Below are positions 3,190 to 16,293 of a stretch of 16,293 nt of DNA, piece after piece. The notes beneath the pieces are model-generated. The model did no database searches and was not told the DNA's origin. It worked only from the letters and a program-made list of their open reading frames with translations. The translations under genes and the position numbers were made by a program. Each line of letters opens with the position of its first letter. Position 1 is the stretch's first letter. The DNA is from a bacterium (lineage in GTDB: Bacteria; Patescibacteriota; Minisyncoccia; JBDRLZ01), in NCBI GenBank assembly GCA_043812555.1, contig JBDRLZ010000034.1, positions 1 to 16,293 of the forward strand, written 5' to 3'.

Positions 3190-3435
3190 ATGTATTATAC
3201 CTATGTTTTAAAAAGCAAAAAAGATAAAAACCTGTATGTTGGTTTTACAAGAGATCTTAAAAGACGCTTTATCAAGCACAATAAAGGGTTGATTAGGTCT
3301 ACTGGCAAAAGAAGACCGCTTATTTTAGTATATTATGAAGCATGCCGCAATAAACAAGATGCAGCAAGACGAGAGAAATCTCTTAAAACAGGATTTGGAA
3401 GAGCATATTTAAAAAGAAGGTTAAGCGATATTTAG
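3190..3435 (+). CDS. stand-alone GIY-YIG nuclease-domain protein (COG2827/YhbQ-like, 81 aa)
   Basis: YYTYVLKSKKDKNLYVGFTRDLKRRFIKHNKG...GKRRPLILVYYEACRNKQDAARREKSLK matches the GIY...YxG...R...H/N...E catalytic pattern of small GIY-YIG proteins. No additional DNA-binding domain. Confidence 0.85.
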   Translation: MYYTYVLKSKKDKNLYVGFTRDLKRRFIKHNKGLIRSTGKRRPLILVYYEACRNKQDAARREKSLKTGFGRAYLKRRLSDI

Positions 3436-3466
3436 TATTTGGGGAGTAGCCAAGCGGTAAGGCAAT
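3190..3466 (+). mobile_element. putative one-gene GIY-YIG insertion cassette that carries or regenerates the 5' flank and 5' half of tRNA-Gln
   Basis: This is the segment between the end of the relic tRNA half (3189) and the equivalent point (3466) in the intact tRNA. It holds only the GIY-YIG ORF plus the duplicated 36 nt. Confidence 0.4.
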
Positions 3467-3510
3467 GGACTCTGAATCCATGATCGTAGGTTCGAATCCT
3501 ACCTCCCCAG
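3440..3510 (+). tRNA. tRNA-Gln(CUG): tRNA-Gln, anticodon CUG
   Basis: Hand-folded cloverleaf. Acceptor TGGGGAG/CTCCCCA, D arm GCC-AAGCGGTAA-GGC (as in E. coli tRNA-Gln), anticodon stem ATGGA/TCCAT with loop CTCTGAA, T arm GTAGG-TTCGAAT-CCTAC, discriminator G. CCA is not encoded. Confidence 0.9.
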
Positions 3511-3534
3511 CTTGAATAATTAACATTAAAAAAC

Positions 3535-4588: not shown

Positions 4589-5596
4589 ATGCACAAGTCC
4601 CAAGTGTTTTTTTGGTTAGTTCTAAGTTTTTTAGCCGGCGTTGCTCTAAGCATAATTGGAGCGTTTACAGCCGGTTTTATTTTAATTTTGGGAATTTTGC
4701 TAATTAGCATTTCTTGGCGCAATAAAAAATTTGTTCTTGCCGGTTTTTGTTTGATTGCTTTATTCTTGGGAATATGCCGCGCAAATTTGCCTGATATAAA
4801 ATTTAATATTAGTTTTTCAGGCCTTTTGCTTCAGGCAAACGCGAGCATAGAAAAAATTCTGCCAGAGCCTCAAGCCAGCTTTTTAGCTGGGCTTTTGTTC
4901 GGTCTTGATAAAAATATTCCAAAAGATTTATTAGAAGATTTTAATAAAACCGGCACTCGGCATATAATTGCCCTGTCCGGCTATAACATAACTATTATTG
5001 CTAGTTTAATAATGAGTTTTTTATTATGGCTTGGCTTTTGGCGCAAACACGCTTTTTATTTGTCTATAATAGCAATTATATTTTTTGTGCTTGTAACCGG
5101 CGCCAGCGCTTCGGTTGTTCGGGCCGCTGTTATGGGCATTTTGGTTTTAATTGCCCAGCAATTTGGCCGGCTTTCTAACCCGCGCAATCTTTTGGCCAGC
5201 GCCGCATTTTTAATGATCTTAAAAGAGCCTAGCGGCCTTTTAGATAATATTGGCTTGCAATTGTCTTTTGCCGCAACTATTGGCATTATTTATTTATCGC
5301 CTTATTTGAAAAAATTGCCGGAAATTTTAAGAACTACTTTGTCAGCGCAGATTGCTGTCAGCCCGTTAATTTTATTTTATTTCAAGCAGATATCTTTGAT
5401 TTCTCCGATTGCAAATTTATTAGTTTTGCCGATTATCCCAATAACTATGCTTTTTGGATTTATTGCTTTGGCAATTAGCCTGCTCTATTTGCCAATCGGC
5501 ATATTTTTATCTTGGCCAGCATGGCTTTTTTTAACTTATGAAATAAAAATTATTGAACTTTTGGCAAAAGTCCCATTCGCGGGCTTGAATTTTTGA
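4589..5596 (+). CDS. comEC: ComEC/Rec2 competence channel (membrane 'Competence' domain only)
   Basis: Polytopic membrane protein with FLAGLLFGLDKNIP...FNKTGTRHIIALSGYNITII...VTGASASVVRAAVMG, the signature core of ComEC/Rec2. It ends before any MBL domain. Confidence 0.8.
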   Translation: MHKSQVFFWLVLSFLAGVALSIIGAFTAGFILILGILLISISWRNKKFVLAGFCLIALFLGICRANLPDIKFNISFSGLLLQANASIEKILPEPQASFLAGLLFGLDKNIPKDLLEDFNKTGTRHIIALSGYNITIIASLIMSFLLWLGFWRKHAFYLSIIAIIFFVLVTGASASVVRAAVMGILVLIAQQFGRLSNPRNLLASAAFLMILKEPSGLLDNIGLQLSFAATIGIIYLSPYLKKLPEILRTTLSAQIAVSPLILFYFKQISLISPIANLLVLPIIPITMLFGFIALAISLLYLPIGIFLSWPAWLFLTYEIKIIELLAKVPFAGLNF

Positions 5597-6154: not shown

Positions 6155-6922
6155 ATGCCGCAAAAATCAAAATTGATTATTTTGGGCAGTTTAGCAATAA
6201 CTGCTTTTTTAGTTTGGCTTGCTGTTTATATTCAAGAAGAGCAAAATTTTTTAAAAGTTTATTTTTTTGATGTTGGCCAGGGAGACGCGATTTTAATTCA
6301 AAAAAACAGCCAGCAGATTTTAATTGACGGAGGGCCAAACAAAGCAATTTTGCAAAAGCTTGGTCAGGCAATGCCTTTTTGGGACAAAAACATTGAGCTT
6401 GTGATATCAACTCATCCTGATTATGACCATTTGGCTGGCTTGAATTATGTTTTAGAAAGATACAAAGTCAACTTGATTTTAGAAACAAGTATTTTATGCC
6501 AAACACAAGCCTGCCAAAAATACCAGAGCTTTGATAAATTGAGAAAAATTGCTGAAATTGGCCAGCAAATTAAATTAGGCCAGAATTGGCTGATAAATAT
6601 TTTGTCTGTTAAAGAATCTATTGTCGCGAAAATGCTTTATCAAGATAAGAGCTTTTTGTTTACTGGCGACGCTGGCTTTGTAATTGAAAAAGAGTTAATT
6701 AATAATAATTTTAATTTAAAATCTGATATTTTAAAAGTCGGACATCATGGCTCAAAAAACGCAACTAGTCAGGAATTTTTAGAACAAGTAAATCCTGAAA
6801 TTGCTGTGATTTCAGTTGGCAAAAATAATCAATACAACCATCCGGCTCCTGAAACACTAGAAAGACTAAAAGACATTCAGGTCTTGCGAACAGACGAAAT
6901 TGGTGATATAATTATAAAATAA
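6155..6922 (+). CDS. ComEC C-terminal-type metallo-beta-lactamase-fold hydrolase, encoded as a separate gene with an N-terminal TM anchor
   Basis: VYFFDVGQGDAILIQ, ILIDGGP, STHPDYDHLAGL (the HxDxDH variant, which I recall as typical of ComEC), FTGDAG, LKVGHHGSKNATS and YNHPAPETL. Confidence 0.85.
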   Translation: MPQKSKLIILGSLAITAFLVWLAVYIQEEQNFLKVYFFDVGQGDAILIQKNSQQILIDGGPNKAILQKLGQAMPFWDKNIELVISTHPDYDHLAGLNYVLERYKVNLILETSILCQTQACQKYQSFDKLRKIAEIGQQIKLGQNWLINILSVKESIVAKMLYQDKSFLFTGDAGFVIEKELINNNFNLKSDILKVGHHGSKNATSQEFLEQVNPEIAVISVGKNNQYNHPAPETLERLKDIQVLRTDEIGDIIIK

Positions 6923-7389: not shown

Positions 7390-8433
7390 ATGCTAAATAA
7401 CAATTTTCCAATTTTTAAAACAAAAATTCCGGGTGATAAAACAATTTTTGATTTAGACGATCCTGTTGAACGCAAAAAATATTTTGAACATAAAGCTGAT
7501 TCTGAAATAGAAAAACTGCGCGATTATTTAAGAGACAATACTTTTGTCGGTTTTTTAATTGGTAAAAAAGGCTCGGGCAAAGGCACTTATGCCAAGCTTT
7601 TTGCCGAAGCAGTTGGCCCGAATTATATTGAGCATATTTCAGTCGGCGACATTGTCCGCAGTATTGACGCTGAATTCAAGAAAAAAGATTTTTTAGATTT
7701 TTTAAAAATAAATTATCGCGGACCAATTGCCCTAAAAGATATTATCAAATCTCTTTCTAAAAGATCGACTAAAATTCTTCTGCCAACAGAGTTAATTTTA
7801 GCTCTAGTTGAGCGGGAGATTTCAAAGCTTGGCCGCAAAGCGGTTTTTATTGACGGCTTTCCGCGCAATATGGACCAAATTTCTTATTCTCTTTATTTTC
7901 GGGCATTAATCGGTTATCGCAATGACCCTGACTTTTTTGTTTTTATTGATGTGCCAGAAGCTGTTATTGACGAGCGAATGAAATATCGCGTTGTCTGCCC
8001 AAAATGCCAATCTCCCCGAAATCTTAAACTGCTCTGCACCAAACAAGTCGGCTATGATAAAAATAACAAAAAGTTTTATTTAATTTGCGACCAGGACAAA
8101 ACGCAAATGCGGCCCAAAGAGGGAGATGAGCTGGGCATTGAAGCAATTCGCGACAGGATAGAGGCAGACGATAAAGTTGCTCAAAGCTTAATGCAAATGC
8201 AAGGCGTGCCAAAAATATATTTGCGCAATTCTCTGCCAGTCAGCACTGCTAAAAAATATGTTGATAATTACGAAATAACGCAAAGTTATTCTTACGAGTT
8301 TGATAAACAAGTAAAAATTATTAAAAAACCATGGGTGATAAAAGACAATCAAGGCGTAAAATCTTACAGCTTGCTTGCTCCGTCAGTTGTCGTGGCTCTG
8401 ATTAAGCAGATGGTTAAGATTTTGGGATTATGA
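7390..8433 (+). CDS. adenylate kinase family protein, atypically long (347 aa) with N- and C-terminal extensions and an enlarged Cys-containing LID
   Basis: P-loop GKKGSGKGT, ISVGDIVRS (compare ISTGDMLR), FIDGFPRNMDQ (compare DGFPRT..Q), and LID VCPKC...(long insert)...CDQD. Confidence 0.7.
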   Translation: MLNNNFPIFKTKIPGDKTIFDLDDPVERKKYFEHKADSEIEKLRDYLRDNTFVGFLIGKKGSGKGTYAKLFAEAVGPNYIEHISVGDIVRSIDAEFKKKDFLDFLKINYRGPIALKDIIKSLSKRSTKILLPTELILALVEREISKLGRKAVFIDGFPRNMDQISYSLYFRALIGYRNDPDFFVFIDVPEAVIDERMKYRVVCPKCQSPRNLKLLCTKQVGYDKNNKKFYLICDQDKTQMRPKEGDELGIEAIRDRIEADDKVAQSLMQMQGVPKIYLRNSLPVSTAKKYVDNYEITQSYSYEFDKQVKIIKKPWVIKDNQGVKSYSLLAPSVVVALIKQMVKILGL

Positions 8434-8499: not shown

Positions 8500-8871
8500 A
8501 TGAATTCACAAAATTCTCTTTCTGTAACTGAAGCCCGCGGCAGAATTTTTGATTTAGTGCAAAAAACTGCTGCTGGCGCCAGATATTTTTTAACTGATCG
8601 CGGTAAGGCCAAGGCGGTTTTAATGTCAGCTGATGAATTTGATTCTTGGCAGGAGACTTTGGAAATAATGAGCGATCCTGAATTAATGAAAGATATCAAA
8701 GAAACAAAACAGGATATTAAGTCAGGTGCTTATAAAAATTATCCAACTTTGGAAGAAGTTCTAGCTGAAGAAGGATTTGTGCTGGCTGATAAAAGCAAAA
8801 AGAAATATGTACCAAGTAGTAGTCAAAAAAAGCGCTCAAAAAAGCTTGGCAAGACTGGATCCAAGATATAA
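8500..8871 (+). CDS. type II antitoxin, Phd/YefM family
   Basis: SVTEARGRIFDLVQKTAAGARYFLTDRGKAKAVLMSADEFDSWQETLEIMSDPELMKDIKE is a classic Phd/YefM N-terminal domain. The Lys-rich C-terminal tail overlaps the toxin gene by 65 nt. Confidence 0.8.
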   Translation: MNSQNSLSVTEARGRIFDLVQKTAAGARYFLTDRGKAKAVLMSADEFDSWQETLEIMSDPELMKDIKETKQDIKSGAYKNYPTLEEVLAEEGFVLADKSKKKYVPSSSQKKRSKKLGKTGSKI

Positions 8872-9075: not shown

Positions 9076-9147
9076 CGGAGCGTCGTATAACGGTTAGTAC
9101 ACAGGGCTGGGGGTCCTGTAATCTGGGTTCAATTCCCAGCGCTCCGA
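9076..9147 (+). tRNA. tRNA-Pro(GGG): tRNA-Pro, anticodon GGG
   Basis: Hand-folded cloverleaf. Acceptor CGGAGCG/CGCTCCG, D arm GTAT-AACGGTTA-GTAC, anticodon stem CAGGG/TCCTG with loop CTGGGGG (G37), T arm CTGGG-TTCAATT-CCCAG, discriminator A. CCA is not encoded. Confidence 0.9.
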
Positions 9148-9166
9148 CTAGAAAAAGCATAAAACT

Positions 9167-11644
9167 ATGCAAAAAGAAGCTAAAGCTAGAATTAAAATAA
9201 ATAATCTGCTCCAAGAAACCGGCTGGAGATTTTTTGATGATGAAAAAAAAGGCGCAAGAAATATTGAAGTTGAGGGCAATGTTAATTTAGAAAATTTAGG
9301 CGATGATTTTGAACACAGCATAGGTTTTATTGATTATCTGCTTTTGGATGTAAAAGGATCCCCTTTGGCTGTCTTGGAAGCGAAATCATCCAGTAAAGAC
9401 CCTGTTGCCGGCAAAAAACAAGCGGAAGATTACGCCAAAGCAAAAAGATGCCGTTTTATTATTTTAAGTAATGGCGACACACATTATTTTTGGGATTTAA
9501 ACCAAAATGCTGAAAAAATAATTTTAAAATTCCCGACACAAAAAGATTTAACGAAGTTGCTCAGCGCAACAACCGCAATGCCTTTATCCGGCATTGATGT
9601 AAAAAATGATTGGATTGTTTTAAGCCAAGGCGCAGTGGCAGAGGAGGAGAAAAAATATCTGCGGGATTATCAATTAGAAGCGTTAAAAACCATTGCCGCT
9701 AAATTTGACAGCAATACTAATAATCGCCGTTTTCTTTTGGAAATGGCAACAGGCACCGGTAAAACTCTGCTGGCCGCGGCTTTGATTAAATTATTTTTAA
9801 ATACCGGCAATGCCAGCAGAATAATCTTTTTGGTTGATAGAATTGAACTGGCGCAACAGGCATTGCAAAACATCAGTTCTTATTTAAAAGAATATAATCT
9901 TTGCATCTTTAAAGAAAACAAAGACCAAGCCTTGCAAAACCAAGTAGTAATTGCGACTATTCAAAGCTTATCATACAATCAAAATTATTTAAAATATTTC
10001 AGCCAGTTTGATTTTGATTTATTAATTTCTGATGAAGCGCATCGCAGTATTTACGGCAACAATCGGGCAATTTTTGAATATTTTCAAGCCATAAAAATCG
10101 GACTTACTGCTACGCCAAAGGATTATTTAAAAAACATTGATGAAAAAGATTTAGCAGACACGGATCCGCGAAAATTAGAAAAAAGAATTCTTTTTGACAC
10201 TTATAAAACATTCGGTTGCGAAAAAGGCGAGCCAAGTTTTCGATTTGATTTAAAAGCCGCGGTTAATCATCAGCCGCCTTATTTAGTAAATCCGATTATT
10301 TATGACAAGCGAAGCGATAAGACTAATCAAATGCTTTCAGATCAGGGCTGGACAGATGCTTTTATTGACGAGGTAACTGGCGAACGAGTGGAAGAAACAT
10401 TTAAAATCCGCCAGCTGGAGCGCAAAGTATTTTCTGATAGTTTAAGTCGTTTAATTGTTGATGAATTTTTAAAAACCTCCCAAAAAGATCCGATTACCAG
10501 AGAAACAGGCAAATCAATTATTTACTGCATATCTCAAAACCATGCCTCAAAAATTGCCCGCCTTCTAAACCAGGCGGCTGATAAAAATTGGCCAGGAAAA
10601 TACTCCGGACACAGCGGAGTTTTCGCGCGCCAAATTACCAGCAATGTAGTTGGCAGTCAAGATTTAGCCAAAAAATTCCGCAACAATCAATTAGGCGCAA
10701 CCAGGGTAGTAGTTACCGTTAATATGATGACTACTGGTTATGATTGCACTGATTTGCTAAATGTTGTTTTAATGCGTCCGATTTTTTCAATCACTGATTT
10801 TATTCAAATTAAAGGCCGAGGCACCCGCCTGCATACTTTTAAAAATGAGCTTACAAAAACAGAGATTAAAAAGGATAATTTTCATTTAATTGATTTTTTT
10901 GGCGTGTGTGAATACTTTGAGGAAAAATATGATTTCACAGTGCCAATCAAACTTTTATCTGTTCTTAGAGACAAACCAATTAGACATTATGGGCAAATTA
11001 AGACAGAAGACAAAACTGTCCTAGAGAAAGAAGAAGCGCCGATTGCTGTTTTGCATGGCCATTATATTTACATCGGCACAGACTTTTTAGTTCGCGACAA
11101 TCAATTAGTAGTTGGTCCGGAATGTATGCGCGTTGACCGCGAGGCCTATCGCGGTTATTTTGAAGAATCAGTTAAGGACTTGATAAAAATAGATCCGTTT
11201 TTTGAATCAGCCATAACCAAAGATGATATTGAGGCGACCGAAGAAATCGCTCAAGAAAAAATATTGGAAAAGCCGATTTATTATTTTACCCTTGATTCTT
11301 TGCGCAAAGCGTATCAAACCGGCAACGCGCTGATTGATTTTCTTAAAAAAGCCGCGGGCTTAATTCCGAAATTGCCGAATAAATATGACCGCCTGAATCA
11401 AGGTTTTGAAGAGTTTAAACTAATTTATTCTGATACGCCTTTTGAAAAGCTGAATTATTTTCAAAATATTTATGAGTGTTATCTTACTAGTCCAGACTAT
11501 CGCCTTGCTCTTGAAAAAGGCAATTTAGCCGCGCTTGACGACCAAGCTTTCGGCGGAATTGTGCCAGTCGGCAGAGTCAATCGCGAGGAAGTGGAAAAAG
11601 TAGTCAATTACATAAAAGAATCTAAAATCGCTTATGTCAACTAA
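9167..11644 (+). CDS. hsdR: type I restriction enzyme R subunit (COG4096/EcoEI-like HsdR)
   Basis: N-terminal PD-(D/E)xK nuclease (KINNLLQETGW..., IDYLLLD, LEAKSS). SF2 motor motifs LRDYQLEA, EMATGTGKT, SDEAHRS, LTATP, TTGYDC and QIKGRGTR. Long C-terminal helical domain. Starts 19 nt after tRNA-Pro. Confidence 0.85.
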   Translation: MQKEAKARIKINNLLQETGWRFFDDEKKGARNIEVEGNVNLENLGDDFEHSIGFIDYLLLDVKGSPLAVLEAKSSSKDPVAGKKQAEDYAKAKRCRFIILSNGDTHYFWDLNQNAEKIILKFPTQKDLTKLLSATTAMPLSGIDVKNDWIVLSQGAVAEEEKKYLRDYQLEALKTIAAKFDSNTNNRRFLLEMATGTGKTLLAAALIKLFLNTGNASRIIFLVDRIELAQQALQNISSYLKEYNLCIFKENKDQALQNQVVIATIQSLSYNQNYLKYFSQFDFDLLISDEAHRSIYGNNRAIFEYFQAIKIGLTATPKDYLKNIDEKDLADTDPRKLEKRILFDTYKTFGCEKGEPSFRFDLKAAVNHQPPYLVNPIIYDKRSDKTNQMLSDQGWTDAFIDEVTGERVEETFKIRQLERKVFSDSLSRLIVDEFLKTSQKDPITRETGKSIIYCISQNHASKIARLLNQAADKNWPGKYSGHSGVFARQITSNVVGSQDLAKKFRNNQLGATRVVVTVNMMTTGYDCTDLLNVVLMRPIFSITDFIQIKGRGTRLHTFKNELTKTEIKKDNFHLIDFFGVCEYFEEKYDFTVPIKLLSVLRDKPIRHYGQIKTEDKTVLEKEEAPIAVLHGHYIYIGTDFLVRDNQLVVGPECMRVDREAYRGYFEESVKDLIKIDPFFESAITKDDIEATEEIAQEKILEKPIYYFTLDSLRKAYQTGNALIDFLKKAAGLIPKLPNKYDRLNQGFEEFKLIYSDTPFEKLNYFQNIYECYLTSPDYRLALEKGNLAALDDQAFGGIVPVGRVNREEVEKVVNYIKESKIAYVN

Positions 11645-14048
11645 ACCTCAAGAATTAAATAAAATTATTGCTGACTTGCGCCAGATTATTGTTGGCGAGG
11701 TAACTTTGCCAACTGACCAGATTGAGCAGATAACTTTATTTTTGTTTCTTAAACAGCTTTCAAAAAAGCATGATGAGTTGGCGAGAAGCGGCGCAAAAGA
11801 ATTGATTTTCACCGGGGAACATGAACGGCATCATTTTGACATTTTAATAAAACACAGCGGCGAAAAACTTGTTAAAGAATGCCGGGAGGCGATTGAGTCA
11901 TTGCACAAAAATAAGAATATTGACGCGACCTTGCGGAGATTCTACGAACGAGCTTATTTAAAAATAATGGAGCCAAAAGTGCTGGCTTATTTTCTTGATT
12001 ATCTGAATAACAGTTTTGACCAATATGTTGATCTTGGAGATTTTTACGAAAGCTTGCTGGATATTTTGGGAACTCAAAAAAAGCTGGGGCAAGTGCGCAC
12101 TCCGCGTCATATTATTCAATTTATTATTGATGTAATTGACCCAAAAATAGGCGAGACTATTTGCGACCCTGCTTGCGGCACAGCCGGTTTTTTGCTTTTA
12201 TCTTTGTTTTATTTAAAAGAAAAATATACTGATAAAAAAGGAAAATTAAATTTGAATCCGGAGCAAAGGCGAAAATTATTTAATGAGACCTTTTACGGAT
12301 GGGACAAGGATCCGCTAATGGTTAAGTACGCGCTGGCTAATTTGTATTTTCATGATTTAAAAAATCCAAATGTTTATCAAAACGACACTTTGCTGAATGA
12401 AGATCTTTGGCAGAATGTTTTTGATATTATTGTCGCCAATCCGCCGTTTATTACGCCAAAAGGCGGCGCGCGCCGGCATTCCCGTTTTGCCATTGCTTCC
12501 AATAAAACCGAAGTGCTATTTTGCGAGTATATGGCGCATCGTCTTAATTTTAATGGCCGGCTGGGCATAATTGTGCCGGAAGGAATTATTTTTGACGGAA
12601 GCAAAGGACATCAGGCAATTAGAAAATTATTTTTAGATAATGGACTTTGGTGCGTTGTTTCTTTGCCGTCTCAAATTTTTCAGCCGTATTCCGGGGTTAA
12701 AACAAGTATTATATTTTTAGATAAGACATTAAAGCCGGAGCAAATTTTATTTTATGAAATAGAAAATCACGGCTTTAGTTTGAACACTAATCCAGCGCCA
12801 ATAGACAAAAACGATTTGCCTAATGCTTTAAAGGTGATTAAAAAATATCATGAGGATTTGCAAAATGGCAAGCAAGCGATAATTGATGAGGAAAAATATT
12901 ACACGATTGCAAAACAAAAAATTTTGGAAAATGAGACAACGAATTTGACGGGCAGGTTTTATAGAGAAAAAAATACAAGCAACAACTGCAAATGGAAAAT
13001 AGTTAATTTGAAAGAAGTTGCCGATATAATTGCTGGTCAATCTCCTAAAGGCAAATATTACAATGAGAAAGGCGATGGGGTGCCTTTCTATCAAGGAAAA
13101 ATAGAGTTTCAAGAAAAATATCTTGGGAAACCAACAAAATGGACAACACAGGTAACAAAAATTGCTCAAAAAGGCGATATTTTGATGTCAGTAAGAGCGC
13201 CAGTTGGTCCAATAAATTTTTGCGTTGAGAAAATTTGTATAGGCAGAGGGCTTGCGGCGATTAGAGCGAACGAAAAAATACACCCTGAGTTTTTGTTCTC
13301 TATTTTGAGACAACAAGAATCAGAAATTACTGGTAGTCAGGGCATTACATTTTCGTCAATAAACAAAGATCAAATTTCAAAAATCAAAATCCCACTTCCG
13401 CCGATTGAAGTTCAAAAAGAAATCGTTGAGCAGATTGAAGTCAAGCAAAACGCCATTTCAGCCGCCAAAGCGGTGATTGAGAATTTAGAGAGAGAGAGAC
13501 GCTATTTTGGCCAAGAGATTAGAAAAATAAAAGATGTTGAGTGGGTGAAGTTGGGCGAGGTTTGCGATGTTTTAGATAGTAAAAGAAAACCGGTTACGAA
13601 AGCAGACAGAACACAAGGAAAATATCCATATTACGGAGCAACTGGAATAGTGGATTATGTAGACGATTATATTTTTGATGAAAAATTAGTTTTGATTGGC
13701 GAAGACGGTGCAAAATGGGGCGTTGGCGGAAAAACGGCTTTTATCGCAGAAGGAAAATATTGGGTCAATAATCACGCTCATGTTTTACGACCAGACAGGA
13801 GCAAAATTTTAGACAAAGTATTAGTCGCATATATCAACTCAATTGATTTGATGCCATACATAACCGGCGTTACGGTGCCGAAATTGAATCAAGAAAAAAT
13901 GCGATCAATTAAAATCCCGCTTTTGACAATTGAAACCCAAAAACAGCTTGTCGCGGAAACAGAAGAGCAGGAAAAAATTATTGAGGCGAATAAAAAACTT
14001 GTCGGCATAATGGAGCAAAAAATCAGCGAAGTTTTAAGTGAAATTTAA
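11634..14048 (+). CDS. fused type I methyltransferase-specificity protein (HsdM N6-adenine MTase domain plus a complete two-TRD HsdS)
   Basis: MTase motifs GQVRTPRHI, DPACGTAGFLL and IVANPPF in aa ~150-280. TRD1 (WKIVNLKEVADIIAGQSP...VRAPVG...KIKIPLPPIEVQKEIV), a coiled-coil spacer, TRD2 (WVKLGEVCDVLDSKRKP...YPYYGATG...NNHAHVLRP...IKIPLLTIETQKQLV) and a terminal helix. One uninterrupted 804-codon ORF. Its ATG overlaps the hsdR stop by 11 nt. Confidence 0.85.
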   Translation: MSTKPQELNKIIADLRQIIVGEVTLPTDQIEQITLFLFLKQLSKKHDELARSGAKELIFTGEHERHHFDILIKHSGEKLVKECREAIESLHKNKNIDATLRRFYERAYLKIMEPKVLAYFLDYLNNSFDQYVDLGDFYESLLDILGTQKKLGQVRTPRHIIQFIIDVIDPKIGETICDPACGTAGFLLLSLFYLKEKYTDKKGKLNLNPEQRRKLFNETFYGWDKDPLMVKYALANLYFHDLKNPNVYQNDTLLNEDLWQNVFDIIVANPPFITPKGGARRHSRFAIASNKTEVLFCEYMAHRLNFNGRLGIIVPEGIIFDGSKGHQAIRKLFLDNGLWCVVSLPSQIFQPYSGVKTSIIFLDKTLKPEQILFYEIENHGFSLNTNPAPIDKNDLPNALKVIKKYHEDLQNGKQAIIDEEKYYTIAKQKILENETTNLTGRFYREKNTSNNCKWKIVNLKEVADIIAGQSPKGKYYNEKGDGVPFYQGKIEFQEKYLGKPTKWTTQVTKIAQKGDILMSVRAPVGPINFCVEKICIGRGLAAIRANEKIHPEFLFSILRQQESEITGSQGITFSSINKDQISKIKIPLPPIEVQKEIVEQIEVKQNAISAAKAVIENLERERRYFGQEIRKIKDVEWVKLGEVCDVLDSKRKPVTKADRTQGKYPYYGATGIVDYVDDYIFDEKLVLIGEDGAKWGVGGKTAFIAEGKYWVNNHAHVLRPDRSKILDKVLVAYINSIDLMPYITGVTVPKLNQEKMRSIKIPLLTIETQKQLVAETEEQEKIIEANKKLVGIMEQKISEVLSEI

Positions 14049-14053
14049 CTAAT

Positions 14054-16039
14054 ATGCGACATTTGATCAATGATAATGGAATTCCTTTTGATTCCACCGA
14101 GCTTCAAACTTTGCGAGGTGAGTTGGACATTTTGACTGACGATGAGCGTACTGAATATAGAAACCAAAACGCTTCGGCTATTGCTCAACATGGAGCAGTA
14201 AAGTTTTTAATTGTTTCAGGTCCAGGAACTGGCAAGAGTACTTTGTTTAAGAACAGGATTAGTTATTGGCTGGGGAAAAATTCTGCATCAAGAATCCTAT
14301 GCCTTACTTTCGTACGGAAACTCGTTGCAGATTTGGATAACGATATACAAAGTGATAAGAATTTAACACCAGCACAAAAAAAACAAGTTGAAGTCCACAC
14401 ATTACATCAATTTGCCCGCAGTATCGTTGAGCAAAATCACGGCACCAAAAAGTGGAGTTTTCAGTCGCATTTCCGAATTATAGGGCAGTCTTGGAAAGAT
14501 ATTGTGTGGAGCGATGTTTTGGCTTTCGATACCGCATTAGATAGGAATATTTATTCTTGGAAAAATTTTGAGGAGCAGTTGCACAATGCCGATTTTGATG
14601 AATCCGTGGAGTGGCAGGGTTTGAAAGAAACATATTTTAAGTTATGCCAATTTTTCAATGCGGCTGGTTTTGCTGATTTAATCTTACGCGCCAAAGATGC
14701 GTTAGCAGAAAATGCCGATCTCAATGAAAGTGATTATTTTATCATTGATGAATATCAAGATTTCAACTCTGCGGAAGACGCACTGATAAATCAATTAGTA
14801 AACGAGCCAAAGGGCTTGCTTATTGCTGGTGACGACGAACAAGTGCTTTATGAAAAATCAAGGTCAGGAAAACCAACTTTGATTCGCAATCTTTACAAAA
14901 ACTGTGATTACGCCAATGGAATGTTGCCTTTTTGCAGCAGAAGTAAGGATAACTTTCATATTACGAAATCAGCCGATTTTTTTATCAATCAGAACAGAGA
15001 TAAAGATTGCATTGAAAAAATTTATTTGCCAATTAAAACAGCTACCAATTACCCCAAAATTCAAATTATTGCTTGCCCCAGCCCTAATTCCGCAATTGAT
15101 TATATTGAAAAGTTTGTGGCTGATAACAAAACGGCAATTGATGAACGAAAAGCCAAATTGGTGGAAGGAGAAGAAAAGGACGCTTTCTTACTAATCTTAA
15201 CGCCACGGAAAATAGAAAAATTTTATGTAAACAATAGATTTGACGGAAAAAAGAAACTCGATGAGCTTATATCTGAATATAGAGCAGAAAATCGCTATTT
15301 TTCAGAGGATTATTACAAAATCTTGAGTTATTACTCTCTCGCCAATAATCCTCAAAACAATTTCACCTTTCGTAAGGTTTTGTACTACGAAAATATTACG
15401 GAAGTGAGAGTGCATGAATTGATCGATAGTGCACTACAAAATAATCAAAATTTTTCCGATCTTGAAGCCGAGGAAACTAGAAATGCGATACAAAAATGCA
15501 ATGAAATTAAGGCGATTTTGGAAGCAGGTGGTCAAACGATAGAGCAAAAAATAGAAGGCATTGCTCGTCATATTGCCATAGCCGACCGAAATCGGCTCAA
15601 AGAAGATATTGAAAGAAAATCCATCAATCAGGAAGAAGTGACAGCAATTGAACATCAAGAAGAGGAAGAGGCGGAATTGGAAGAAATTGAAGTAAAAAAA
15701 ATGGGTGCCATTGAGCTAATGACAATAATTGGCTCAAAGGGATTATCGGCTGATCATGTGATAATAGTTGGTTTTGATAATGTGAACATGGGTAATTGGA
15801 TTACCAGCAACGCTTTTTATGTTGCTATGACTCGCGCCAGAAAAAGTTTGCATGTCCTTACGGCGTTAAAATCGGGTGGCGCGAGGCAAGCGCATAATTT
15901 TTTGGAGCAATTGCCAGATGAACACGCTGAATATCACAGCTATAAAAAAAGTAACCACACAAAAAATCAATTACAAGGCAAACAAGGATTTAAGAATTAT
16001 TTGAATAATCTAAACTTGGCTTCGCAGCACAAACGATAA
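14054..16039 (+). CDS. UvrD/PcrA-like superfamily 1 helicase-family ATPase of unknown role, operonic with the type I R-M genes
   Basis: SF1 motifs I VSGPGTGKST, Ia CLTFVRKLV, II FIIDEYQDF, III IAGDDEQVLY, V TIIGSKGLSADHVII and VI FYVAMTRARKSLHV. A ~300-aa insert between III and V contains an acidic coiled-coil segment (EEEEAELEEIE). No nuclease motif recognised. Starts 5 nt after the hsdM-S stop. Confidence 0.8.
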   Translation: MRHLINDNGIPFDSTELQTLRGELDILTDDERTEYRNQNASAIAQHGAVKFLIVSGPGTGKSTLFKNRISYWLGKNSASRILCLTFVRKLVADLDNDIQSDKNLTPAQKKQVEVHTLHQFARSIVEQNHGTKKWSFQSHFRIIGQSWKDIVWSDVLAFDTALDRNIYSWKNFEEQLHNADFDESVEWQGLKETYFKLCQFFNAAGFADLILRAKDALAENADLNESDYFIIDEYQDFNSAEDALINQLVNEPKGLLIAGDDEQVLYEKSRSGKPTLIRNLYKNCDYANGMLPFCSRSKDNFHITKSADFFINQNRDKDCIEKIYLPIKTATNYPKIQIIACPSPNSAIDYIEKFVADNKTAIDERKAKLVEGEEKDAFLLILTPRKIEKFYVNNRFDGKKKLDELISEYRAENRYFSEDYYKILSYYSLANNPQNNFTFRKVLYYENITEVRVHELIDSALQNNQNFSDLEAEETRNAIQKCNEIKAILEAGGQTIEQKIEGIARHIAIADRNRLKEDIERKSINQEEVTAIEHQEEEEAELEEIEVKKMGAIELMTIIGSKGLSADHVIIVGFDNVNMGNWITSNAFYVAMTRARKSLHVLTALKSGGARQAHNFLEQLPDEHAEYHSYKKSNHTKNQLQGKQGFKNYLNNLNLASQHKR

Positions 16040-16070
16040 ATTATTGAGGAAATTGATTTTTTGTGAGATA

Positions 16071-16154
16071 ATCAAAATACTAATCCCACCCACCACCCAA
16101 TTTGAGGTCCCGCCGCTGCCTGAAAGAATCACCGAAGTTTTAAGCGAAATTTAG
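16071..16154 (+). pseudogene. relic 3' end of an hsdS-type gene
   Basis: 16122-16154 matches 14016-14048 (the last 11 codons of hsdM-S including the stop) at about 28/33 nt. It translates to ...FEVPPLPERITEVLSEI*, against ...KISEVLSEI* in hsdM-S. PPLPE resembles the conserved IPLPP(L/I)E(E/V)Q motif. Upstream AAAATACTAATCCCACC weakly echoes AAAATCCCGCT at about 13911. Confidence 0.6.
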
Positions 16155-16168
16155 GTGTGTCTAACTTC

Positions 16169-16209
16169 TTTACATCGTCCTTGACAAACTATTTTACATC
16201 ATCTAAAAT
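16169..16209 (+). promoter_or_regulatory. sigma70-like promoter flanked by direct repeats; predicts a leaderless XRE mRNA
   Basis: TTGACA (16181-16186), a 17-nt spacer, TAAAAT (16204-16209), then 6 nt to the ATG at 16216. Direct repeats TTTACATCGTC (16169-16179) and TTTACATCATC (16193-16203) flank the -35. Confidence 0.6.
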
Positions 16210-16215
16210 ATAACC

Positions 16216-16293
16216 ATGCTTTCAAAATTTATTTTAGAACAGCGAAAAAAGAATAATCTGACGCAGGAGTTTTTAGCGTCTAAAATCGGCGTT
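16216..16293 (+). CDS. XRE-family helix-turn-helix transcriptional regulator (3'-partial, runs off the window)
   Basis: MLSKFILEQRKKNNLTQEFLASKIGV matches the start of the Cro/C1-type HTH (R...LTQEELA.K.GV). Confidence 0.7.
   Translation, partial: MLSKFILEQRKKNNLTQEFLASKIGV

Follow-up and report, generated by a model that had tools for sequence, protein, structure and literature searches.

The window (the whole 16,293-nt stretch of DNA that was analysed) contains, towards its right end, an open reading frame for a UvrD-like SF1A helicase at 14054..16039 (ATG to TAA, 661 aa); this and all features described below lie on the forward strand. The helicase gene has the same orientation as hsdR (9167..11644) and an hsdM-S fusion gene (11634..14048) and is tightly coupled to both. 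As in the original prediction, hsdR and hsdM-S overlap by 11 nt, the hsdM-S stop codon (TAA, 14046-14048) is separated from the helicase ATG at 14054 by five nucleotides, CTAAT as read off the sequence (14049..14053), and neither a promoter nor a terminator was matched at this junction. The best promoter-like site of the region (11/12 matches) is located 3' of the helicase gene, at 16181-16209. In sister operons the same junction consists of 3-5 nt ahead of an OLD-like gene. Such operon coupling can also reflect nothing more than the need of a promoterless cargo gene for a transcript. The start codon ATG 14054 is supported by the alignments of homologues and by nucleotide homology, each of which begins there; a database entry of 658 aa (P0001) implies a start at TTG 14063, three codons downstream.

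The two upstream genes contain the components of a classical type I restriction-modification (R-M) system, i.e. HsdR with nuclease and SF2 motor, a methyltransferase for N6-adenine, and a specificity part that comprises two target-recognition domains. HsdR, the restriction subunit, has an N-terminal nuclease region, the SF2 motor, and an EcoEI_R_C-like tail (Pfam ResIII, 135 bits, HSDR_N, Helicase_C, and EcoEI_R_C; PADLOC REase_I, 209 bits), and it scores 226 bits with the NCBIfam EcoAI family, below the cut-off of 550. HsdM-S (804 aa) combines the methyltransferase (Pfam N6_Mtase, 159 bits; PADLOC MTase_I, 309 bits) with both target-recognition domains (two Methylase_S stretches in Pfam; PADLOC Specificity_I, 181 bits) and belongs to a large family, in which M-S fusions of ~800 aa are common among homologues.

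A tRNA-Pro(GGG) gene (9076..9148; ARAGORN, Rfam tRNA 56.5 bits) ends 18 nt upstream of hsdR and is possibly the left edge or the integration site of an island. The rest of the window holds no repeat of the 3' end of this tRNA, so that the right border of the island was not located. Over the whole window Rfam matched two tRNAs only, with no match at the element 3' of the helicase gene. On the other side, the promoter-like site (TTGACA-17-TAAAAT) and an ORF from 16216 together occupy 16181..16293; this ORF, cut short by the end of the window, belongs to the next transcription unit. By eye, its 26 N-terminal residues resemble an XRE-type helix-turn-helix protein, and no similarity to the C-proteins of other loci was detectable.

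Domains and fold of the helicase

The SF1 helicase motifs that had been predicted in the 661-aa ORF (I, Ia, II, III, V, and VI) are present and were placed as follows: motif I, or Walker A (GPGTGKST with K61), at aa 56-63 (14219..14242), motif Ia at aa 85-94, motif II (DEYQD) at aa 230-238 (IIDEYQDFN, the Walker B of DExQ type, 14741..14767), motif III (GDDEQ) at aa 257-267, motif V at aa 559-569, and motif VI at aa 589-600, preceded by a Q-like motif at aa 35-43. The Walker A sequence and D232, E233, Q235, and D236 are invariant in 58 homologues. Judging from its residues, the helicase is presumably catalytically intact, with all ATPase/helicase motifs kept. Pfam domains above the gathering score, together with motifs I-VI, place it among the UvrD-like SF1A enzymes: UvrD-helicase (PF00580, 98.9 bits, cut-off 23) covers aa 37-283, with a match to AAA_19, and UvrD_C/UvrD_C_2 cover aa 398-603 (PF13361, 27.9 bits, cut-off 25.6; PF13538, 28.9 bits, cut-off 27.4). 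In agreement with the original prediction, no nuclease domain was detected in the helicase with Pfam, PADLOC, or NCBIfam profiles.

The AlphaFold2 (AF2) model (pLDDT 77.3) has the four subdomains 1A/1B/2A/2B and superimposes along its entire length on UvrD (2is1; E = 1e-21, TM 0.59-0.60) as well as on PcrA (3pjr) and Rep (1uaa) (TM ~0.6), which are its best structural matches. Therefore, what had been taken as an insert of ~300 aa with an acidic coiled coil is actually the ordinary 2A/2B region of the UvrD fold, and an acidic linker ahead of motif V is found in UvrD itself too. Of the N-terminus reported as unrecognised, only about aa 1-30 are family-specific, as a conserved extension. The C-terminal tail (aa 605-661) is also family-specific and appears in the model as a short hairpin and a helix, not a Tudor domain. 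Thus the helicase shares motifs and subdomains with UvrD, PcrA, and Rep, but is only 14-18% identical to them and differs in the additional N-terminal 30 aa and in its tail; moreover, those three are core genes, whereas the gene in the window is mobile and R-M-linked.

Distribution of the helicase family

The helicase is a member of a small family that is highly conserved and spreads horizontally. Its members are compact, at 640-675 aa, and form a tight cluster of their own. The family profile was searched against 1.84 billion representatives, and among the 150 best family representatives (an 804-aa outlier left out) there was no informative domain fusion and no effector or toxin domain. The family comprises at least 879 clusters at 90% identity, and at least ~70 of these 150 representatives reach 200 bits. 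Close relatives are 63-88% identical across distant phyla in a patchy pattern, and the GC content of the helicase is ~35-41% as against 33-56% in the host flanks. Searches of phage and plasmid collections (tblastn) and of IMG/VR did not find the family, but only relatives at ~24-27% identity, so that it is no known gene of phages or plasmids. Every close relative stems from a metagenome-assembled genome, and mis-binning may affect some of the short contigs; close relatives are found on contigs of up to ~0.6-0.7 Mb, and a record of 2.7 Mb carries a deeper-branch helicase with 51% identity. These long contigs confirm chromosomal residence, for family members only. Our search of the literature, which was incomplete, did not turn up any account of this family or of UvrD-like helicases attached to the end of R-M operons.

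An ordinary housekeeping repair or replication helicase that lies beside an R-M operon by chance would also have general UvrD-family domains and the UvrD fold. This explanation is hardly credible, as the equivalog cut-offs of NCBIfam exceed the scores 12- to 20-fold (PcrA, 73.5 bits vs 911; Rep, 63.3 vs 951; UvrD, 54.3 vs 1144), helicase IV is likewise below its cut-off (59.1 vs 543), and housekeeping synteny and vertical inheritance are contradicted by the patchy cross-phylum identity, the foreign GC content, and the context of R-M genes and mobile elements. Orthology to UvrD/PcrA/Rep, the objection that the original prediction had itself raised, is therefore not borne out.

Several other assignments were also rejected. 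For MADS, mad8 matched over the P-loop only (E = 6e-6), and MAD2 (83 bits vs 720) and MAD5 (30 vs 400) remained below their cut-offs. The RTasHel profile of DRT in PADLOC matched aa 35-274 only (profile positions 5-240 of 675), and a reverse transcriptase domain is absent. Neither an integron integrase nor a cassette array was present in the loci examined, which excludes an integron cassette. In PADLOC v2, no PDC or HEC model matched the helicase.

A gene-neighbourhood census of relatives with 63% identity or more gave 30 informative loci, and in ~26 of these an R-M operon lies immediately upstream on the same strand, which agrees with the R-M linkage that had been proposed. In these ~26 loci the helicase is the last gene of the operon, with a gap of about -50 to +38 nt. 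In a control of distant UvrD-like helicases (~26% identity), only ~9/66 of the genes in the two upstream positions had R-M domains. At least seven unrelated R-M architectures precede close relatives, whose helicases are 64-82% identical to that of the window: type I HsdR + HsdMS; T1RH-type HsdR; a C-protein with an EcoRI-like methylase and GmrSD_N/HNH; a C-protein with an ApaLI-like endonuclease and a methylase; a C-protein with a methylase and TdeIII endonuclease; (PLD-)SNF2 with an Eco57I/MmeI-like methylase; and a Dam-like methylase with a 382-aa protein (L217). An eighth, type III Mod + Res, occurs in a deeper branch. This 382-aa protein, a 461-aa protein (L225), and the neighbours c28, c44, c61, u244, u276, u331, and u535 gave no PADLOC match, and for most of these neighbours Pfam was also blank; the partners c40 and c44 are mutually unrelated. 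In three cases (L009, L012/L218, and L221) a close relative stands alone among genes for housekeeping or defence; therefore, an R-M partner is not strictly required by the helicase. Many deeper-branch helicases adjoin recombinases, integrases, or housekeeping genes. Frequent neighbours across the loci are serine recombinases, integrases, transposases, and small GIY-YIG genes, as well as AbiE, Abi_C, MORC-like, and toxin-antitoxin genes.

The suggestion that the helicase is a fourth subunit of a type I-like system is not supported, since seven or more R-M architectures and type III share the helicase family. TdeIII-, EcoRI-like-, and T1RH-linked helicases share 78-82% identity with that of the window, but two type I-linked helicases share only 70-73%. 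In the helicase tree the R-M types are intermixed and the type I-linked helicases are not monophyletic. At L091 the helicase is 82% identical while the adjacent HsdR and HsdMS are 42-45% identical, so that the helicase is far better conserved than the R-M genes. A type I holoenzyme subunit, specific to HsdR, HsdM, and HsdS and co-evolving with them, is not what these data describe, and they argue for a partner-agnostic plug-in module over a co-evolving fourth subunit. Nucleotide homology between helicase cassettes begins at the ATG, in many pairs not more than 3 nt off. Overall, the helicase gene is one that moves among R-M architectures, and the family looks like a portable defence accessory rather than one of repair enzymes or type I subunits.

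The 3' flank and the slot behind the R-M genes

The last codons of hsdM-S (...KISEVLSEI) form the left copy of a 31-nt direct repeat (14017..14047), whose right copy (16123..16153) lies beyond the helicase gene and is identical in 28/31 nt (z = 14.6 in local alignment vs shuffles). The right copy is part of a fossil hsdS 3' end (16101..16154), which reads in frame FEVPPLPERITEVLSEI and then has a stop. The 5' part of this fossil is common to the helicase cassettes L001, L009, and L024, which belong to different R-M contexts. Between the helicase and the fossil, and overlapping the latter, is a conserved non-coding 3' segment (16040..16116) that travels with the helicase gene; across contexts, nucleotide homology of the cassettes extends ~71-116 nt beyond the helicase stop. 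A metagenome scan with an 18-mer of this segment returned 120 matches, of which 116 were chance matches and four had the extended segment, all four directly behind a family helicase. The helicase stop codon is also flanked by a perfect 15-nt inverted repeat (15958-15972 / 16051-16065), kept as a perfect repeat of 12-15 nt in L001, L009, and L024. The RNA fold of 15940-16160 is only as stable as that of shuffles (z = 0.01).

The duplicated hsdS 3' end around the helicase gene looks like an insertion scar. In L015 and L016 the 3' end of the upstream gene is likewise duplicated (z = 11.6 and 7.8), and the downstream copy is a diverged allele. Of all loci checked, only the window, L015, L016, L026, and L031 have significant flanking direct repeats, that of L031 being a palindromic element; they are absent in the remaining helicase loci and in the OLD-carrying loci, and therefore the insertion scar is not general.

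One explanation of these flanks is a selfish hitch-hiker or maintenance gene, in which a promoterless cassette enters the 3' ends of R-M genes, supplies a replacement end, and rides on addictive, often transferred R-M operons, while the helicase serves transfer or recombination of the cassette or island and not defence. The duplicated 3' ends in the window, L015, and L016 would fit, as would the 3' non-coding segment and fossil hsdS end that travel into non-type-I contexts, the GC content foreign to many hosts, and the recombinases, integrases, transposases, and GIY-YIG genes nearby. We nevertheless consider it distinctly unlikely: the cassette has no recombinase, Rep, or relaxase, a UvrD-like helicase cannot mobilise DNA by itself, most loci have no flanking repeats, and the family is not in the plasmid, phage, and IMG/VR collections searched. 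In addition, all helicase motifs are under very strong purifying selection across phyla, which implies that each host benefits from their function.

The slot occupied by the helicase is used by other genes as well. In sister HsdR-HsdMS operons (L224-226) it holds an OLD/AriA/GajA-like gene, with or without a Cas4-like nuclease, and in L134, which is type I-linked, an OLD-like gene is located ~1 kb downstream of the helicase. Cas4-like PD-(D/E)XK nucleases follow deeper-branch helicases in L027 (gap +1 nt) and L017 (overlap of 4 nt). The same Cas4-like family (53% identical) stands after the OLD/GajA-like gene in L224 and also behind a distant UvrD-like helicase in L052. Thus the absence of partner nucleases noted in the original prediction holds for the window but not for the wider family, whose helicases are found paired with Cas4-like and OLD nucleases. 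Since the window ends 254 nt past the helicase, a partner further downstream may exist.

With such a cargo position, the helicase may instead be a stand-alone defence or 'guardian' gene, for which the R-M operon is a mere transcription/translation platform and a defence-island address. For example, it could sense DNA mimics directed against restriction, or intermediates of phage replication, and respond with NTP depletion or growth arrest, without cooperation of the restriction enzyme. An anti-anti-restriction sensor role, as proposed originally, is possible by analogy with the OLD/AriA/GajA-like ATPase-TOPRIM protein that sits after hsdM-S in sister operons. Solitary family members, the frequent AbiE, Abi_C, MORC-like, and toxin-antitoxin neighbours, the documented embedded but independently acting systems PrrC, DarTG2, and BrxU, and the PADLOC GajB models that match over most of the helicase are all consistent with such a gene. 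We regard it as conceivable but doubtful. The 150 best family representatives show no effector or toxin domain or fusion, the structural similarity to GajB is weak in comparison with UvrD, and the preference for the last position in R-M operons of many types, where stop and start codons overlap or nearly abut, exceeds ordinary co-location in an island (26/30 vs ~9/66 neighbour genes of the distant controls).

Possible role after restriction

The explanation that we prefer, tentatively and at somewhat less than an even chance, is that the UvrD-like SF1A helicase, from a discrete and horizontally mobile family, is a partner-agnostic accessory of R-M operons, which would act on DNA cut by its partner. 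The mechanism inferred for it rests on gene context and family analogy. The helicase would dock on no particular R-M subunit; its target would be the common product of R-M systems, i.e. nicked or cut non-self DNA. It may load at ends or nicks and unwind 3'->5' like other SF1A helicases, and the unwinding might prevent restriction from being reversed, in that re-ligation or rescue by recombination would be blocked and nucleases of the host or the partner would be supplied with substrate. As another possibility, the helicase may burn (d)NTPs on meeting DNA ends in a GajB-like manner. In either case it could be seen as the helicase member of a pair that processes DNA ends in the manner of Gabija or AddAB, whose nuclease would be supplied by the restriction enzyme. 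Counted in favour of this accessory role are the non-housekeeping scores, the complete UvrD fold, the census against its control, the intermixed R-M types, the higher conservation of the helicase than of the R-M genes, its stable GC content, the homology that begins at the ATG, and the Cas4-like pairing; counted against it are the solitary relatives, the non-R-M contexts of the deeper branch, and the restriction of close relatives to metagenome-assembled genomes.

Roadblock clearing is an established role of UvrD, Rep, and PcrA. By removing R-M complexes that are tightly bound to host DNA or stalled on it, the helicase could lower the replication/transcription cost or the autoimmunity of a newly acquired R-M system. 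This cost mitigation would be useful to every R-M type, in line with the partner-agnostic distribution, and the fold is closest to UvrD/Rep/PcrA. It is very unlikely, since a module for interaction with DnaB or RNA polymerase is not recognisable, the tail is not a Tudor domain, and the Cas4-like pairing and the sharing of the slot with OLD-like genes are left unaccounted for.

Returning to the accessory role on cut DNA, a broader version of it can be described as follows. R-M operons across bacteria may share a small combinatorial toolkit of add-ons for the 3' end of any restriction system (UvrD-like helicase, OLD/GajA-like, and Cas4-like genes), in which the helicase cassette would insert with a replacement 3' end and boost restriction universally through its action on cut DNA, and composites of R-M with the helicase or with OLD might have been the source of two-gene systems such as Gabija, or the reverse; we consider this rather unlikely. 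The insertion scars hint at a grafting of promoterless defence cargo onto existing operons. R-M systems are usually viewed as self-sufficient. If the helicase attaches to every R-M class, a step after cleavage, for which end processing, repair prevention, or signalling are candidates, would often be limiting and repeatedly selected. This is relevant especially for CPR bacteria, which are assumed possibly to lack RecBCD or AddAB. The combination of R-M and helicase is a concrete candidate for defence-system synergy and ties Gabija-type components to R-M; the family is new with respect to the PADLOC v2 models, which hold no entry of its own.

GajB hydrolyses (d)NTPs at DNA ends. Like GajB, the helicase in the window is a nuclease-less UvrD-like SF1 helicase that shares its defence operon with a partner that cuts DNA. 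GajB HMMs in PADLOC, which have no curated cut-off, reach up to 79.6 bits, some near full length, but in Foldseek GajB (8sm3_B and 8jqb_E) gives a TM of 0.26-0.34 compared with ~0.6 for UvrD. The partner here is an R-M system of any type, and no GajA/OLD gene is present in the window. A Gabija system of GajA and GajB was therefore rejected, OLD-like genes being found only in the sister loci L224-226 or 1 kb off in L134.

RecBCD has an established role in degrading restricted DNA. With AddAB, AdnAB, and RecBCD the helicase shares the UvrD-like motor, the proposed role in processing restriction-made DNA ends, and, in deeper-branch relatives, a Cas4/RecB-family PD-(D/E)XK nuclease that follows. 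It differs in being a single small, unfused polypeptide, and neither Chi recognition nor a partner subunit is evident in the window. An AddAB/RecBCD-type complex was rejected, as there is no nuclease domain in the helicase and no RecB-family partner in the window, the Cas4-like nuclease being in trans elsewhere (L027, L017; L052).

Accessory or embedded defence genes in R-M loci have been described as PrrC, DarTG2, and 'guilt by embedding' (PMC12707154, PMC12255303, 10.1101/2024.01.29.577857), and they provide a precedent for reading the helicase as an R-M accessory. As with PrrC (EcoprrI), DarTG2 (between hsdS and hsdR), and the PADLOC 'guilt by embedding' genes, a further defence-related gene is found on a type I R-M transcript. 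Genes of the PrrC/DarTG2 type stand between hsd genes and have toxin/effector domains, whereas the helicase stands after the last gene and has no effector domain, and its family follows R-M types I, II, IIG-like, and III.

The H subunits of CglI and NgoAVII are SF2 DEAD-type motors and obligatory partners of one specific PLD-nuclease subunit. They resemble the helicase as helicase-like ATPases encoded inside an R-M operon together with restriction and methylase genes; the helicase of the window, in contrast, is SF1 UvrD-like and promiscuous across R-M types.

A helicase gene closing a type I operon

In the window, tRNA-Pro (9076-9148), hsdR (9167-11644), the hsdM-S methylase-specificity fusion (11634-14048) and the helicase ORF of 661 aa (14054-16039) are co-directional. 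The last 11 nt of hsdR already belong to hsdM-S. The hsdM-S stop codon TAA is followed by CTAAT (5 nt) and then by the helicase ATG, and a consensus scan of this junction gave no promoter-like or terminator-like match. The helicase ORF contains the Pfam domains UvrD-helicase, AAA_19 and UvrD_C, and the full SF1 motif set was located. The original prediction of a UvrD-like helicase coupled to a type I restriction-modification (R-M) operon is therefore borne out. The start codon at 14054 is supported, since homologues in the alignment share the beginning MRxLIN and nucleotide homology between loci with different upstream genes opens at this ATG, at most 3 nt off in many pairs. Past the helicase, a promoter-like site at 16181-16209 (11/12 matches), stronger than any other in the region, precedes a new ORF from 16216. 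The first residues of this ORF, which is truncated by the end of the window, resemble an XRE-type helix-turn-helix protein, and a further defence or regulatory unit may begin here. On the other side, tRNA-Pro(GGG) ends 18 nt 5' of hsdR and the R-M-helicase island may have integrated at this tRNA gene. The window was also scanned for a repeat of the tRNA 3' end, and none was found.

A housekeeping role, as an orthologue of PcrA, Rep, UvrD or helicase IV, is effectively excluded, because the respective NCBIfam equivalog models score only 54-73 bits against cut-offs of 543-1144. An AlphaFold2 model (58 homologues, pLDDT 77, pTM 0.71) aligns from end to end with UvrD, PcrA and Rep (Foldseek E ~1e-21, TM ~0.6), while AddA/RecB/AdnAB motors give weaker matches and GajB only TM 0.26-0.34. 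Therefore, what had been described as an insert of ~300 aa with an acidic coiled coil is the normal 2A/2B region, and UvrD has a comparable acidic linker directly before motif V. Specific to this family are ~30 conserved residues added at the N-terminus and, at the C-terminus, a tail of ~55 aa; a nuclease domain is indeed absent.

Of 1.84 billion representatives searched with a profile, 193 matched at E <= 1e-30. Among the 150 best, scores fall from 889 to ~140 bits, near-full-length members are uniformly 640-675 aa, many lower matches are fragments, and no informative domain fusion was seen. The family has no dedicated model in the searched copies of Pfam, NCBIfam and PADLOC v2. At aa 63-84 (window about 14240-14305), two sharply different alleles occur in the helicase alignment A1, TLFKNRISxWL...ILCLTF and HLFLxRIxxWYQQD...VFVTSF. 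Their distribution is independent of overall similarity; family protein P0002 is 88% identical to the window helicase yet has the other version, and the pattern suggests intragenic recombination.

Association with R-M operons of different types

For the neighbourhood census, ORFs were called in 80 genome loci and clustered, neighbours were annotated, and Pfam-annotated metagenome contigs were added. An R-M operon lies immediately upstream in ~26 of 30 informative loci with a helicase at least 63% identical to that of the window, on the same strand, with the helicase as the last gene and gaps of about -50 to +38 nt. As a control, 38 distant UvrD-like helicases (~26% identity) were taken, and of the two genes preceding each, only ~9/66 had R-M domains.

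The upstream genes (L numbers denote the compared genome or metagenome loci) are HsdR with an HsdM-S fusion (window, L001, L010, L039, L091, L095, L113, L115, L134, L216); T1RH-type HsdR with an unknown protein of 366 aa (L002/3); a C-protein with an EcoRI-like methylase and GmrSD_N/HNH (L004/5, L006-8, L222), with an ApaLI-like endonuclease and N6/N4 methylase (L013), or with an N6/N4 methylase and TdeIII endonuclease (L024, L036); (PLD-)SNF2 with an Eco57I/MmeI-like methylase (L015, L016, L033, L085, L220, L223); a Dam-like methylase with an unknown protein of 382 aa (L217); and, in a deeper branch, type III Mod and Res (L027). Exceptions are three solitary copies (L009, L012/L218, L221) and one locus with a divergent methylase only (L011).

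R-M types are intermixed in the neighbour-joining tree of the helicases. Identity to the window helicase is 78-82% for TdeIII-, EcoRI-like- and T1RH-linked copies but only 70-73% for two type I-linked ones. The adjoining R-M genes are in every case far less conserved than the helicase, at 42-45% against 82% for L091 and 43-47% against 73% for L010. The helicase does not appear, then, to be a fourth subunit of a type I-like system, as had been proposed. The varied architectures, the intermixed tree and the stronger conservation of the helicase argue for a partner-agnostic module which was repeatedly re-associated with R-M operons rather than a co-evolving type I subunit. That R-M loci can contain accessory or embedded genes is already known (PMC12707154, PMC12255303, 10.1101/2024.01.29.577857), and UvrD-like helicases such as GajB and DarH are known parts of defence systems; the literature searched gave no account of a UvrD-like helicase being attached systematically to R-M operons of every class.

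A word-indexed search gave 879 clusters, of which the top 120 are 63-100% identical to the window helicase; the few named ones among these carry labels from widely different phyla, namely CPR groups, Actinomycetota, Bacteroidota, Proteobacteria and Cloacimonadota. In the one-genome-per-species GTDB, close relatives are all from metagenome-assembled genomes. Family members lie on contigs up to 2.7 Mb (the helicase of this chromosome being of a deeper branch, 51% identity), and close relatives on contigs up to ~0.6-0.7 Mb. Since the GC content of the gene stays at ~35-41%, against 33% to 56% in the distal flanks, genuine recent horizontal transfer is indicated, and not mis-binning alone. Phage, plasmid and IMG/VR collections gave only relatives of ~24-27% identity.

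Cassette-like borders and a probable insertion scar

Homology runs ~71-116 nt past the helicase stop in several pairs (window, L001, L009, L024). The conserved non-coding segment at 16040-16116 accompanies the helicase into different contexts (L001, L009, L024, partly L010) and, in the metagenome sample, occurs only behind family helicases. A 31-nt direct repeat lies on both sides of the window helicase, at 14017-14047 (the hsdM-S end) and at 16123-16153 (28/31 nt, z = 14.6 against shuffles). The second copy falls within a fossil hsdS 3' end at 16101-16154, FEVPPLPERITEVLSEI then stop, and the 5' part of this fossil is also found behind helicases now in non-type-I contexts. L015 and L016 repeat this design at another target, having a methylase C-terminus (...DQLVYQLYGL...) upstream and a diverged allele of it from 18 nt past the helicase stop (z = 11.6 and 7.8). 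Such layouts look as if the cassette had gone into the 3' end of an R-M gene, bringing a replacement 3' end and displacing the original. The scar is missing from most loci examined for flanking repeats, and the cassette encodes no recombinase.

A perfect 15-nt inverted repeat (15958-15972 and 16051-16065) spans the helicase stop, one arm being coding and the other belonging to the 3' segment. In L001, L009 and L024 it is kept at 12-15 nt, and RNA folding around it was no better than for shuffles. In L026, a direct repeat of ~70 nt (9853-9923 and 12369-12440, z = 18.9) flanks a deeper-branch helicase, which adjoins an Mrr-like nuclease and an E2/ThiF-like gene.

Nuclease partners and possible function

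The position directly 3' of hsdM-S is not reserved for the helicase. It is missing from two sister HsdR-HsdM-S operons, whose HsdM-S is 53% identical, and they instead have an OLD-family ATPase-TOPRIM gene 3-5 nt past the hsdM-S stop, the product of which matches the PADLOC models Old (154 bits), AriA and GajA. Regions of this kind are L224 4687-7025, L225 5218-8384 and L226 5207-8373. In the latter two, the OLD gene is followed by an unknown protein of 461 aa; in L224, by a Cas4-like PD-(D/E)XK nuclease, 53% identical to the nuclease directly 3' of the L027 family helicase and 50% to a nuclease that follows a distant UvrD-like helicase (L052). The L017 helicase gene overlaps a Cas4-like and RNase-H-fold protein, and in L134 an OLD-like gene lies ~1 kb downstream of HsdM-S and helicase. 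The 3' ends of R-M operons are thus decorated with combinations of UvrD-like helicase, OLD nuclease and Cas4-like nuclease, types from which Gabija and AddAB-like end processors are also built.

The association with R-M is strong and directly testable, while the function is something we infer from sequence. Since the helicase is indifferent to R-M type yet pairs elsewhere with DNA-end nucleases, the most economical model is that it would act on what every type of restriction leaves behind, namely foreign DNA with cuts or nicks. Unwinding from ends or nicks would leave fragments which are neither re-ligated nor rescued and are passed to nucleases. Alternatively, it might hydrolyse (d)NTPs on meeting DNA ends, as is reported for GajB (PMC10681800; Cheng et al. 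2023, cited in PMC12707154). Rivals to action on restricted DNA are a helicase that clears roadblocks and mitigates the cost of R-M, a selfish cassette hitch-hiking on R-M operons, and an independent guardian which merely borrows the R-M transcript, for which PrrC, DarTG2 and PARIS-type sensing of anti-restriction proteins are precedents.

Small free-standing GIY-YIG proteins recur. They lie 75-330 nt from family helicases in L012/L218 (8236-8526), L023 (9413-9865) and L086 (10297-10563); in the window, one (3190-3435) is beside tRNA-Gln (3440-3511), at a distance of ~10 kb from the helicase. Any connection with movement of the cassette is speculative. A Phd/YefM-type antitoxin gene (8500-8871, 123 aa) encodes a long basic C-terminal tail, and no toxin partner was recognisable before the tRNA. 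ComEC-type Competence and metallo-beta-lactamase domains are on separate ORFs (4589-5596 and 6155-6922) ~560 nt apart, so that ComEC is either split or disrupted. The adenylate-kinase-like protein (7390-8433) is unusually long at 347 aa, with the ADK domain at aa 56-267 only.
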